A stretch of 44,405 nt of DNA from the sequence record PQ571288.1; one strand, written 5' to 3'. A program made the translations under genes and the position numbers. A model generated the notes under the pieces. The model was not told where the DNA came from. It made no database searches and saw only the letters and a list, made by a program, of their open reading frames with translations. Below, piece by piece: positions 1,138 through 3,405 of this stretch (its first letter is position 1; each line of letters starts with the position of its first letter). Source of the stretch: Escherichia phage EC3-1.

Positions 1138-3405
1138 ATGTCCGATGTAATTTTATCCTACTCGTGGTCACGTCGCAACGCGCGGGCGGAGAAAAAGGAT
1201 ATAAACGTCAGAACCACACACACGGCAACACTGGACGACCTGAAAGAGTTAATCCAGCCACTCGATGCCGTTCGTGACGGGATTAACCCTAAGACCGCAC
1301 CAGGTTATATCACCGCCGCGTGTGACTCTACGCACAGCACCGTAAAAGACCCGGAAACTGGCGACTTTAAGCAAGCGCGTAAAGGCTTTTTCTATCGCTG
1401 TGACGCGTCTGTAAGCAAATCGTCGCTGGCGTATCTGGATTTCGACAGCGCAACACCGGAAGAGTATCAGGAAGCGGTGCGCCTGGTTAAGCGTAGCCGC
1501 CGGGCCATGTGCCTCTACACTACGGCATCACATACGGATGAGTCCCCTCGCTTTCGTGTCGTCATGCCGCTGGCCCGTCCGGTTGAAGGTGGTGACATCA
1601 TCCGCGTCCGTCATGGGTTGCTGGAGCACTTCTTCAAAGGCATGGGCGCAGACCGCAGCGGGTTTACCCTGTCTCAGCCGATGTACCTGCCACCGGTTGG
1701 CGCTACCGTTATCTGGCCGCGCCGCAACGACCTGATTGACCCGGACGAGTTACTGGAAGGCGTACCGGATTACGAGGTTAGCAGCGCATCGGATTACCAG
1801 ATACCGGAAGAACTGCGCACCGCGTTTACTGATGCGTTCGAAGCATTGGCATTCGAGTACGGCGGTATCATGACGCCCCGCGGCCTTAAGATGCCAGCCA
1901 CACCAGAACACGCAGAGAACTACAGCGACCCGACACCACGCCCGGACGACTTCCTGTTGTGCTTCCCGCGCGAGGGGTATGAAGCGCCTAACGTAACCAT
2001 GATTCACGACACCGACATTACGGCAACCGAAGGCATGTCACCGAAAGAGGTGTGGAAATACGCGTGCGATGCGACCGGGCTGCCTTTCAGTGAAGTCGCC
2101 GAGGCTATCGGCTGGGGTGCACGTGAATCTGTCTCATGCAGCCTCGACGACCTGGAAGACGACGAGGACTCAGAGGAGGACGAGTTACCGGAACCGGTAA
2201 AGGCTGATTTCATCGTCGAGGGGTACATGCCGTCGGATTGTATCTGGGATATTGTCGGGGAATCTGGTACGTACAAATCGTTCTATACGTTGGGGATGAT
2301 GTACCTGAGCGCGGCGGGATACCGGTTTGCGGGGGCGGATACCCAGCGTTGTCACCATTTCTATATCGACGGTGAAGGGGGTGCAGCTACACGCACACGT
2401 ATTGATGCACTCGCAGCTAAATATGGCGAGGAAGGTAAAGATTATGTACACGTCATTGATATGGGCGAAGTCGGCAAACTGAAAAGCCTGATTAAGTTAA
2501 TGCGCGAAACTGCGGGCGATGAACCTATCGGCATGGTCGCGTTCGACACCCTTAACCAGACCCTGGCCCTGACGATTGATAAGTTTGACGAGAACAGTTC
2601 ATCAACGGCAATTGGCATGGGTAAGGTTATCTCCATCCTGAAAGAAGTGCGTGATGCGACTAAAGCCGCGGTAGGTGTTGTTCACCACACACCGAAAGGC
2701 GGAAAGAAGGCTCGAGGTAGCGGGGCGCTGTACGCGGGCGTCGACGTGGAACTGACAATCGAACGCGCAACCGACCGTCAGATAAATGTATACCACTCTA
2801 AATTTAAGCACGGCCCACAACAGAAGACGGTCGGCATGGTGCTGGAGTCGGTACAGTTCCGTGAAGCGCCACCGCCGAAAGAGTACCGTGCGGTTGAGTT
2901 CCTGGGTAACACAGATGAATACGGCACAATCGTTAACCTGGACCTGCCGGAGCCACATAAGGCACTTGTGTTAATGCCGTGGGGCTTCGAGCCGTTCAAA
3001 ACTGACGAGGAGAAAGAGCGGGAAGAAGGGCTGACGAAAGAAGGTAAAGAAAACGTACGTAAAACCGTAGAGAACGCCGTCAACAGTTCAGAAGCCACGA
3101 TACTGGCTGCGTTTGAACTGGCGGAAGGAACCTACAACGGCAACGAAGGTATCACGGTAGCCGCAGCGAATAAGCTCGCACAGTCAGACCCCAACTCAAA
3201 GGCGTTTAACTCCAAAGAAGCCATAGAACGCGGGAAGATTAAGAAAATGGTTGAGGCCGGGTATCTTGTGCCGGGAACCGACGAAAACAATCAGATAATC
3301 CCTGGCCGCTACAGGCTGAACACCCGGATAACAGATAACAAGATTCCTAAGACAATATACGAACCGAATGAAATGCTGACAGTGACAGAGGAGGATTTGG
3401 AATGA
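1138..3405 (+). CDS. Primase-polymerase (AEP-type) / replicative helicase fusion
   Basis: N-terminal YLDFDSA (DxD) and SHTDE motifs typical of archaeo-eukaryotic primase-polymerase domains; C-terminal Walker A GESGTYKS, Walker B VAFDT and VVHHTPK typical of RepA/DnaB-like P-loop helicases; ATG 1138 with RBS GAAGGA (track ORF opens at GTG 1096). Confidence 0.8.
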   Translation: MSDVILSYSWSRRNARAEKKDINVRTTHTATLDDLKELIQPLDAVRDGINPKTAPGYITAACDSTHSTVKDPETGDFKQARKGFFYRCDASVSKSSLAYLDFDSATPEEYQEAVRLVKRSRRAMCLYTTASHTDESPRFRVVMPLARPVEGGDIIRVRHGLLEHFFKGMGADRSGFTLSQPMYLPPVGATVIWPRRNDLIDPDELLEGVPDYEVSSASDYQIPEELRTAFTDAFEALAFEYGGIMTPRGLKMPATPEHAENYSDPTPRPDDFLLCFPREGYEAPNVTMIHDTDITATEGMSPKEVWKYACDATGLPFSEVAEAIGWGARESVSCSLDDLEDDEDSEEDELPEPVKADFIVEGYMPSDCIWDIVGESGTYKSFYTLGMMYLSAAGYRFAGADTQRCHHFYIDGEGGAATRTRIDALAAKYGEEGKDYVHVIDMGEVGKLKSLIKLMRETAGDEPIGMVAFDTLNQTLALTIDKFDENSSSTAIGMGKVISILKEVRDATKAAVGVVHHTPKGGKKARGSGALYAGVDVELTIERATDRQINVYHSKFKHGPQQKTVGMVLESVQFREAPPPKEYRAVEFLGNTDEYGTIVNLDLPEPHKALVLMPWGFEPFKTDEEKEREEGLTKEGKENVRKTVENAVNSSEATILAAFELAEGTYNGNEGITVAAANKLAQSDPNSKAFNSKEAIERGKIKKMVEAGYLVPGTDENNQIIPGRYRLNTRITDNKIPKTIYEPNEMLTVTEEDLE

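Follow-up and report, generated by a model that had tools for sequence, protein, structure and literature searches.

The gene at positions 1138–3405 of Escherichia phage EC3-1 very probably encodes the replicative primase-helicase of the phage, in which an archaeo-eukaryotic primase (AEP) domain, a small post-AEP subdomain, a RepA-type helicase and a winged helix are joined in one polypeptide. The window analysed is the whole stretch of 44,405 nucleotides in sequence record PQ571288.1, and all positions refer to it. The reading frame, the folds, the conservation of motifs, the homology with RepA and the gene context are shown directly.

In the mechanism proposed, D101, D103 and D172 would serve as ligands of the catalytic metals, and the nucleotide would be held by S131/H132 together with R140. 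The post-AEP subdomain would replace the PriCT/zinc-finger module, its zinc ligands having largely been lost. Past a flexible acidic linker, the RepA-type helicase would form a hexameric ring, presumed to move 5'→3' on the lagging-strand template, and the chain would finish with a C-terminal winged helix, which may recognise the origin or a partner, and then a short acidic stretch that is conserved. T7 gp4 as a functional analogue and BFK20 gp43 as an architectural one suggest that this ring would open the fork while the AEP domains tethered to it, presumably catalytically active, make primers from NTPs or dNTPs. These primers would be extended by the family A polymerase of the phage, and a gp2.5-like SSB would coat the ssDNA. 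A literature search found no biochemical work on the helicase-primase subfamily of the EC3-1 type.

The gene and its reading frame

EC3-1 is a K1G-like E. coli phage (Kagunavirus). A preliminary description of the sequence had claimed a single ORF of 755 amino acids at 1138–3405, and this is present at exactly that length:

1096–3405 (+): open reading frame in the ORF list; its earliest ATG, at 1138, gives exactly 755 amino acids (MSDVILSYSW...)
1138–3405 (+): helicase-primase gene, 755 amino acids plus stop; orthologue of K1G gp44, which is annotated 'replicative helicase-primase'

The sequence GAAGGAA lies about 8 nt upstream of the ATG at 1138. The K1G annotation uses the same start and the K1G gene is likewise 2268 nt long, the two being 92% identical in nucleotide and 97.7% identical in amino acid sequence over the full length. 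The family phrog_3228 ('replicative helicase-primase') also matches the EC3-1 protein over its full length (1e-287). As near-identical genes are already annotated in this way, the EC3-1 gene is an ordinary one, and many copies are labelled by NCBI only as 'AAA family ATPase'.

The N-terminal primase domain

The following features were assigned in the part of the gene preceding the helicase:

1138–1782 (+): AEP catalytic domain, residues 1–215, with a conserved core at residues 85–215 (AlphaFold2 model, Foldseek, relatives)
1438–1446 (+): AEP motif I, D101-F-D103 (metal-binding DxD), at the end of strand 92–102
1528–1533 (+): AEP motif II, S131-H132 (sxH), just past strand 125–128
1651–1653 (+): D172, candidate acidic residue of AEP motif III
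1810–2142 (+): post-AEP subdomain, residues 225–335, a small beta-sheet plus helices (alignment A1, AlphaFold2 secondary structure)
2143–2193 (+): acidic interdomain linker LDDLEDDEDSEEDELPEP, residues 336–353 (sequence)

The AlphaFold2 model of residues 1–345 (pLDDT 88.2) indicates that the N-terminal domain has the AEP (RRM-like) fold, in agreement with the AEP primase domain claimed in the preliminary description, a claim that the lack of such a fold in profile or structure searches would have overturned. Searched with Foldseek, the model gave as its top PDB match 6zp9_A, the AEP domain of the cyanophage S-2L PrimPol (E 3.8e-6, prob 1.0). The TM-score of this match was moderate, 0.31 by query length and 0.52 by target length, with an rmsd of 7.2 Å and 14% identity, and it was the sole PDB fold match under E 1e-3. 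The lower-ranked PDB matches were mostly AEPs (LigD-Pol, RepB', herpesvirus (HSV) primase, ASFV, CAPP and human PrimPol), and the matches in BFVD were phage VirE, PriCT-2, NrS-1-like, RepB-primase and primase proteins (1e-15 to 1e-5). That the primase is not of the DnaG type, as had been proposed, is consistent with the Toprim/DnaG models of Pfam and NCBIfam, none of which matched the EC3-1 protein; the annotation of the K1G genome likewise lists no primase of that type.

The motifs named in the preliminary description were all located (YLD101FD103S, YTTAS131H132T and, in the helicase, the Walker A sequence GESGTYK380S), and their conservation among 26 relatives indicates that they exceed chance. 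These 26 N-terminal relatives, with identities down to 21–30%, make up alignment A3, in which D101, D103 and R140 are invariant and R87, T129, H132 and D172 reach at least 90% conservation. Among close relatives (alignment A1), motif I, the sequence TTASH and D172 are invariant. D172 is put forward as a candidate for motif III by conservation and spacing, not by superposition. The full catalytic set (DxD, sxH, D and two Arg) is also kept in the variant-2 domain, which is otherwise about 18% identical.

The N-terminus of EC3-1 matched no Pfam or NCBIfam AEP model and no PDB sequence, whether searched as a single sequence or as a profile. The Pfam models for Prim-Pol (PF09250) and PriCT (PF08708, PF08707), which the preliminary description had suggested as a check, gave no match to the EC3-1 protein at E up to 1 and none in the 26 aligned relatives; PriCT_2 and PriCT_1 were seen only in more distant relatives. 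A match of the N-terminus to PDB entry 7pvp was rejected, this being a designed repeat protein in which a 19-residue stretch was matched six times.

An exhaustive search of representative proteins gave 149 matches, mostly at residues 85–215. This search was needed because a word-indexed one returned only 3 proteins with the N-terminal domain and only 8 with its alignment. Distant relatives of the AEP core carry partner domains that are classic for AEPs, namely AAA_25 (17 of 85), DUF5906 (15), VapE (13), PriCT_2 (8), DUF3987 (4) and DnaB_C (3), and D5_N, PriCT_1 and the NrS-1 HBD also occur. The model PF08800 (BT4734-like_N) matched the cores of 3 of the 26 relatives, the best at 2.9e-5, but not the EC3-1 protein itself, and the link to the BT4734-like/VirE_N group is therefore only transitive. 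In the explanation preferred here, this group is the probable nearest Pfam family of the AEP core, and S-2L PrimPol is its nearest solved structure.

Membership of the PrimPol-PV1 supergroup was also considered, as the architecture fits the descriptions of PrimQH and all3500. That supergroup, to which RepB' belongs, carries a Gln in motif II and a motif IV that contains Arg (PMC5862659). It was not adopted because the defining 'Rh' arginine of motif IV is not conserved: inspection of alignment A3 showed no conserved Arg downstream of D172, where R173 varies and S/Q179, Y183 and P185 are conserved. The invariant or near-invariant arginines R87 and R140 both lie upstream of motif III.

The post-AEP subdomain sits where PriCT or ZnBD domains lie in other AEP-helicases and is homologous to the C-x3-H...C-x7-C zinc-finger region of the variant-2 relatives (alignment A1). 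In EC3-1 the corresponding region reads PATPEH...FLLC, most of the zinc ligands being lost. The ligands of the zinc finger, which many AEP primases need for initiation, are thus mostly absent from the protein, and no PriCT or Zn-ribbon model of Pfam matched it. The pLDDT of the linker that follows is 54–61 at the end of the N-terminal model and 51 where the C-terminal model begins.

The loss of the zinc-finger ligands would favour a different role for this domain, in which the AEP-like fold is catalytically dead and serves for DNA binding or as a scaffold, priming being left to host DnaG recruited to the phage helicase. The lack of matches to curated AEP models points the same way, and the weak fold matches of the N-terminal model include RRM-like origin-binding domains of Rep proteins (ranks 9–36). 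The best-ranked fold matches, however, are mostly active AEPs and not Rep origin-binding domains. Moreover, the catalytic set is invariant or nearly so down to the lowest identities in alignment A3 and is kept in variant 2, which argues for selection on catalysis. A dead domain is accordingly considered very unlikely.

The helicase domain and the C-terminal tail

The remainder of the gene contains the following features:

2194–3012 (+): RepA/DnaB-type (SF4, RecA-fold) helicase domain, residues 353–625
2257–2280 (+): Walker A, G374-E-S-G-T-Y-K380-S
2533–2550 (+): Walker B strand, M466-V-A-F-D470-T
2683–2688 (+): H516-H517, containing the equivalent of the RepA sensor histidine
3055–3342 (+): winged-helix-like C-terminal domain, residues 640–735 (predicted topology; HMM matches of relatives)
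3343–3402 (+): conserved C-terminal 20 residues, with the acidic end TEEDLE-COOH

The RepA/DnaB-like P-loop helicase claimed earlier was readily recovered. The Pfam model AAA_25, also among the suggested checks, matched residues 352–522 of the EC3-1 protein (4.5e-17), and RepA came top both by profile and by fold: the helicase profile matched RSF1010 RepA in the PDB at 5.6e-27, and Foldseek with the helicase model gave RepA (1g8y_A) at 1.2e-10 with a TMt of 0.67. The T7 gp4 helicase domain (about 2e-6) and DnaB were also found by the profile. The C-terminal model is of low confidence at residues 577–606 and in the final 20 residues.

In the helicase alignment (A4), K380, D470 and H517 are invariant and correspond to K43, D140 and H179 of RepA, respectively, while E413, which is at least 90% conserved, is aligned with RepA E77. 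We take these RepA residues to be the Walker A lysine (K43), the catalytic glutamate (E77), the Walker B aspartate (D140) and the sensor histidine (H179).

Structures of Rad51, RadA, RecA and KaiC match the helicase model at about 1e-10 to 1e-9, close to RepA, and RadA reaches 6e-14 by profile, so the P-loop domain might be thought a RecA/RadA/KaiC-like recombination or regulatory ATPase and no replicative helicase. RepA leads by both fold and sequence, however, and by profile it is 13 orders of magnitude ahead of RadA. The profile matches to T7 gp4 and DnaB also speak against a recombination ATPase, and a fused primase and a place in a replication module are typical features of replicative helicases (PMC4889955). 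An ATPase of the recombination or regulatory kind is thus extremely improbable, and the domain is treated below as a replicative helicase.

The claim of a winged-helix-like tail stands in part. The model of residues 651–727 has the topology α1-β1-α2-α3-β2-β3 (block pLDDT about 80–90), and the tails of relatives match MarR_2 (3.8e-7), TrmB (1.9e-8), HTH_24 and DprA_WH, whereas the tail of the EC3-1 protein itself gave no wHTH HMM match. On the predicted topology, the EC3-1 tail appears to be winged-helix-like. In the relative L003 the tail cassette is replaced between EC3-1 positions 3050 and 3327. Among relatives, each of the three modules (primase, helicase and tail) was also seen to recombine independently of the others.

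The C-terminal 20 residues are 85–100% identical in Kagunavirus-type relatives, even in those with a different tail, and less so in P0040 and P0041. The helicase-primase and the DUF2800 exonuclease were seen to have a C-terminal [ST]EEDLE peptide in common, and the ends of the two genes in EC3-1 have 21 identical nt, including GAGGAGG and the ATGA overlap. A duplicated ribosome-binding cassette was rejected as the sole cause of the shared TEEDLE because of what is found in L003–L005: the exonuclease of L003 and L004 retains SEEDLE by means of synonymous codons that contain neither the SD nor the ATG, and the helicase-primase of L003–L005 retains TEEDLE though no downstream gene follows. The interdomain linker and the gp2.5-like SSB both contain DDLED, an echo of [ST]EEDLE.

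A broader and distinctly doubtful proposal is that the protein is a zinc-less AEP primase-helicase built of three independently exchanged modules among otherwise near-identical Kagunaviruses, the tail type setting the specificity for an origin or partner and [ST]EEDLE serving as a common docking tag. The modules in question may be the primase block (with two small upstream genes), the helicase core and the winged-helix tail. If the peptide were such a tag, it would bring several replication proteins to a single partner, much as the acidic tails do in T7 gp4 and gp2.5.

Replication neighbourhood and comparison with known systems

Three genes downstream encode further replication proteins:

5270–6520 (+): DUF2800 PD-(D/E)XK exonuclease, also ending in TEEDLE (PF10926 2.3e-67; PDDEXK_1 2.7e-9; phrog_69 'exonuclease' 1.2e-121)
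6835–7461 (+): Enc34/gp2.5-like ssDNA-binding protein (PF10991 1.1e-15; phrog_112 'Gp2.5-like ssDNA binding protein' 1.2e-41)
7523–9706 (+): family A DNA polymerase with a 3'-5' exonuclease region (DNA_pol_A 3.8e-16; DNA_pol_A_exo1 2.6e-4; phrog_17 2.5e-134)

The last of these is the separate family A polymerase that the preliminary description had reported, and an SNF2-type helicase also belongs to the gene context. The conclusion drawn there that the replisome is largely host-independent is overstated, because the K1G genome annotation contains no ligase, clamp or clamp loader, topoisomerase or dedicated primer-removal enzyme.

A search in and around the helicase-primase gene gave no iterons, tandem arrays or origin-like repeats. 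The sole nearby repeat (3970–3994 / 4014–4038) resembles a promoter or operator that has been duplicated. No co-variation between tail type and non-coding DNA was seen in the conserved region 3719–4074, which is 94–96% identical across genomes of all three tail types.

Both results weigh against the N-terminal AEP being mainly an origin-specific initiator, directed to the origin by the tail. In the same alternative the domain could be a DNA primase-polymerase using dNTPs, as in BFK20 gp43, NrS-1 and pRN1 ORF904, and not a repetitive lagging-strand RNA primase; here the phage's own family A polymerase, with its proofreading region, makes an AEP polymerase activity unneeded. There is also evidence on the other side. 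The closest solved fold, S-2L PrimPol, polymerises DNA (PMC8065100), and BFK20 gp43, also a fusion of AEP and RepA, has DNA primase and polymerase activities and takes dNTPs only (PMC4538821). The winged helix is an exchangeable cassette, as expected for a specificity module, and NrS-1 shows that PrimPols without a zinc finger can initiate (PMC8718748). An initiator or primase-polymerase of this kind is possible, though rather unlikely, and is compatible with a replicative primase-helicase, not exclusive of it.

The fold and profile evidence documents an AEP-type priming enzyme in Guernseyvirinae phages (K1G-like and Jersey-like). This AEP subfamily is missed by current Pfam and NCBIfam models, and a dedicated domain model would lead to better annotation of several hundred phage genomes. 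Biologically, the replicative primase-helicase of EC3-1 is one further instance of the known fusion of an AEP with an SF4 helicase and answers no open question; a small follow-up would be worthwhile only for the exchange of modules and for the acidic peptide shared at the C-terminus.

K1G gp44 (YP_009168824) and the Kagunavirus/Jerseyvirus orthologues are the same gene as that of EC3-1, with the same neighbours, and the orthologues from Jersey-like Salmonella phages are 56–58% identical to the EC3-1 protein. K1G gp44 shows no substantive difference from it, and the public annotations omit the type of primase. The AEP-RepA-winged-helix architecture is itself already published (BFK20 gp43; Kazlauskas 2016, 2018), and an AEP-PriCT/ZnBD-helicase-WH architecture has been described (PMC5862659). 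The corynephage protein BFK20 gp43 is the exemplar of the fusion of an AEP with a RepA-like SF4 helicase (PMC4889955) and, sharing this architecture with the EC3-1 protein, is its experimentally characterised analogue. It falls, however, in the Prim-Pol proper clade, whereas the EC3-1 protein has no PF09250 match and its relatives are nearest BT4734-like_N.

S-2L PrimPol resembles the EC3-1 protein in having an N-terminal AEP, flexible linkers and a C-terminal helicase of the hexameric type, and the order of the catalytic residues is comparable (E85/D87, S116 and D146 in S-2L; D101/D103, S131 and D172 in EC3-1) (PMC8065100). Its further domains are PriCT-2 and a VirE (SF3-like) helicase, and its phage has no other polymerase; EC3-1, unlike S-2L, has no PriCT match, a RepA/SF4 helicase and a separate PolA. 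In RSF1010 the two halves of the EC3-1 protein correspond to separate polypeptides, RepA and RepB'. The latter, a primase of the AEP fold, is a weak fold match of the EC3-1 N-terminal domain (E 0.04–0.08) and has Gln in motif II and the motif IV Arg (PMC5862659), whereas in EC3-1 motif II contains His and no Arg is conserved past motif III.

The functional analogue is T7 gp4, in which an N-terminal primase is likewise tethered to an SF4 ring helicase and whose partners are a family A polymerase and a gp2.5-type SSB. Both proteins end in an acidic C-terminus. The T7 primase is of the DnaG/Toprim type with a Cys4 zinc domain, whereas the EC3-1 protein has the AEP fold, a degenerate zinc site and an extra winged-helix-like domain.

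The helicase-primase gene and its helicase domain

The six-frame ORF list contained a single long plus-strand ORF (1096..3405), whose first ATG, at 1138, gives a 755-residue protein. A Shine-Dalgarno-like GAAGGAA lies about 8 nt 5' of this ATG, which is also the start annotated in relatives. The gene shares 92% DNA identity and 97.7% protein identity with gp44 of Escherichia phage K1G (Guernseyvirinae, Kagunavirus), annotated as a 'putative/replicative helicase-primase', is present in 109 phage records at megablast level and matches PHROG 3228 'replicative helicase-primase' end to end (1e-287). 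Thus the ORF is real and correctly delimited, confirming the 755-residue protein placed at 1138-3405 in the preliminary description, and its functional label already existed, as did its annotation and, in the literature, its architecture.

Residues 353 to 625 match Pfam AAA_25. A profile of 17 helicase sequences, searched against the PDB, gave RSF1010 RepA as the best hit (5.6e-27), followed by RadA (6e-14), T7 gp4 (2e-6) and DnaB (6e-6). The profile alignment paired K380, E413, D470 and H517 with RepA K43, E77, D140 and H179, whose roles we take from prior knowledge of RepA; the helicase family alignment shows no variation at K380, D470 and H517 and at least 90% conservation at E413. RepA was also the top fold match (1.2e-10, TM 0.67) of an AlphaFold2 model of residues 341 to 755 (pLDDT 75). 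With RepA first by both profile and fold, and AAA_25 matched, the 'RepA/DnaB-like' helicase originally proposed was correct.

The segment at 2854-2997 (residues 573 to 620, QFREAPPPKEYRAVEF...LPEPHKALVLMPWGFEPF) is near-invariant across Kagunavirus and Jerseyvirus, yet the model is very uncertain over its first part (residues 577 to 606, pLDDT 35-55). The segment may serve the helicase in interactions or as a subunit-swapped element.

The N-terminal primase domain

A Pfam search with the whole protein matched AAA_25 at residues 352 to 522 only, so that the Prim-Pol match anticipated from the sequence was not obtained. NCBIfam models gave no match to the protein, nor did a PDB sequence search with the N-terminal domain. 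An exhaustive phmmer search with residues 1 to 345 against 1.84 billion representatives returned 149 proteins at E ≤ 1e-3, in most of which residues ~85 to 215 alone were covered. When 85 of these were scanned with Pfam, this shared core was in most cases uncovered by any model. The accompanying domains, AAA_25 (17), DUF5906/D5-like (15), VapE (13), PriCT_2 (8), DUF3987 (4) and DnaB_C (3), as well as D5_N, PriCT_1 and the NrS-1 helix-bundle domain, are classic partners of archaeo-eukaryotic-type (AEP) primases.

The core was aligned in 26 sequences, with identities down to 21-30%. D101, D103 and R140 are invariant and R87, T129, H132 and D172 at least 90% conserved; at the sequence level the order DxD, sxH, D is the AEP pattern, with D172 as the candidate third acidic residue. 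In three of the 26 relatives the core matched the AEP family BT4734-like_N (PF08800; best 2.9e-5), which links the protein to AEPs transitively by sequence.

An AlphaFold2 model of the domain built from the 26-sequence alignment (mean pLDDT 88.2) had as its top PDB fold match the AEP domain of cyanophage S-2L PrimPol (6zp9_A; E 3.8e-6, probability 1.0, TM 0.52 by target length). Lower-scoring matches, too, were mostly AEPs: LigD polymerase domain, RSF1010 RepB', herpesvirus primase, HP0184, ASFV PrimPol, CAPP, and human and mycobacterial PrimPols. Among predicted viral structures, phage VirE, PriCT-2, NrS-1-like, RepB-primase and 'DNA primase' proteins matched at 1e-15 to 1e-5. The catalytic residues of S-2L PrimPol are E85/D87, S116 and D146 (PMC8065100); D101/D103, S131 and D172 follow in identical order with broadly similar spacing, and we infer that they cluster in space in the model. 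The absence of an AEP fold, which would have overturned the preliminary description, was thus not observed, and the AEP reading stands: the protein belongs to the AEP superfamily, here fused to a RepA-family helicase. The subfamily is nearest to BT4734-like/VirE_N and S-2L PrimPol; no biochemical work on it was found in the literature searched.

After the AEP core, residues ~225 to 335 are modelled as a small sheet plus helices. Relatives with the second type of primase domain (P0042, P0054 and P0077) carry here C-x3-H...C-x7-C, which is similar to a UL52/PrimPol-type zinc finger. The equivalent stretch of our protein (~1897-2010, residues 254 to 291) reads PATPEH...FLLC and keeps only H258 and C275, so most ligands are gone and the zinc site has probably been lost. 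The PriCT domain suggested earlier is unsupported because no Pfam PriCT model matches the protein; its position is occupied by this degenerate zinc-finger-like module.

The C-terminal tail and mosaicism of the gene

Residues 651 to 727 are predicted to form a1-b1-a2-a3-b2-b3 (block pLDDT about 80-90), which is the winged-helix topology. The tail itself had no HMM match, but relatives' tails at the same position match wHTH models (MarR_2 3.8e-7, TrmB 1.9e-8, HTH_24, DprA_WH). It is reasonable to describe the tail as winged-helix-like, as the preliminary description did, on the strength of predicted topology and relatives rather than a match of its own.

Among Kagunavirus relatives the gene has a mosaic structure: identity is 91-98% in the helicase core, either 94-97% or just 17-20% in the N-terminal region, and either 95-97% or 26-33% in the tail. 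The two primase-domain types share about 18% identity overall (26.6% over a 79-residue core), and there are at least three tail types (26-33% identical); primase and tail types occur in all combinations around the conserved helicase core, the related loci compared including L003, L004 and L005. In the DNA, the tail cassette is 3050-3327, and the alternative primase block replaces ~244/352 to ~2136/2171, swapping with it two small upstream genes, 604-813 (HTH_17) and 803-1078.

The replication module and related systems

Four further replication genes lie downstream of the helicase-primase gene:

5270-6520, plus strand, DUF2800 PD-(D/E)XK exonuclease
6835-7461, plus strand, Enc34/gp2.5-like single-stranded DNA-binding protein (SSB)
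7523-9706, plus strand, family A polymerase with exonuclease region
plus strand, SNF2-type helicase, the fourth gene

The separate family A polymerase claimed at the outset is thus present. Among the annotated genes of the K1G genome there is no DnaG/Toprim primase, ligase, topoisomerase, clamp or clamp loader, and no enzyme dedicated to primer removal, which makes the replisome a minimal, T7-like one. Only in unwinding the fork, priming and synthesis is the phage 'largely host-independent'. The original observation is confirmed and its interpretation supported, except that the PriCT and Prim-Pol expectations were not borne out and 'host-independent' was too strong.

Both the helicase-primase and the exonuclease have ...VTEEDLE* as their C-terminal end. 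Their genes share the final 21 nt (3385-3405 and 6500-6520, ACAGAGGAGGATTTGGAATGA), a match of which none would be expected by chance, and this stretch doubles as a strong Shine-Dalgarno sequence and ATGA stop/start overlap for the downstream ORFs at 3402 and 6517. Related genomes (gene ends in L002-L005) retain [ST]EEDLE through synonymous codons, and also where no downstream ORF follows, which suggests that selection acts on the peptide. A DDLED motif recurs in the linker between primase and helicase (2143-2193, residues 336 to 353, SLDDLEDDEDSEEDELPEP, containing DDLEDDED), and the SSB carries DDLEDGEEDE (SVDDLEDGEEDEAPRRERRRR) near its C-terminus, before an unusual poly-Arg end. Hypothetically, these acidic peptides could share a docking function like that of the T7 gp4 and gp2.5 acidic tails.

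Several observations concern the surrounding DNA. Translation of the 104-residue ORF at 3402-3716 (phrog_2638, unknown function, C-terminal half hydrophobic) is coupled to the end of the helicase-primase gene. L003-L005 lack this ORF and have the Cro/CI-like gene directly next; the difference is probably an insertion or deletion (moron-like). No iterons or origin-like repeats were found near the helicase-primase gene. A 25-nt sequence is directly repeated at a distance of 44 nt (3970-3994 and 4014-4038, TTGAYAYGTGAATAGT...) in the divergent intergenic region that separates the Cro/CI-like HTH gene (3734-3949, minus strand) from the rightward genes; this region is 94-96% conserved in relatives, and the repeats look like duplicated promoter/operator elements. 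Selfish elements invade the replication module of relatives: the polymerase of Salmonella phage vB_SenS-Ent1 (L002, 10982-14080) is annotated as intein-containing, and in L005 HNH_3 homing-endonuclease genes (14656-15156 and 15898-16371) flank the SSB gene between exonuclease and polymerase. The module studied here has neither.

By analogy with RepA and gp4, the RepA-type domain would assemble as a ring on the template of the lagging strand, unwinding 5'->3'. The AEP domains, tethered to the ring through the acidic, low-confidence linker LDDLEDDEDSEEDELPEP, would make primers for the family A polymerase to extend, and the gp2.5-like SSB would coat the displaced strand.

Membership of the PrimPol-PV1 supergroup was rejected because the arginine of motif IV that defines this supergroup is not conserved in the 26-sequence alignment. 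The overall architecture has published counterparts. RepA-like replicative helicases 'are often fused with the AEP domain as exemplified by BFK20 gp43', SF4 plus AEP making up 19% of SF4 cases (Kazlauskas et al., PMC4889955), and BFK20 gp43 acts as a DNA primase and polymerase that uses dNTPs only (PMC4538821). The PrimQH and all3500 families have the order AEP, PriCT or ZnBD, P-loop helicase (including RepA), WH (PMC5862659).
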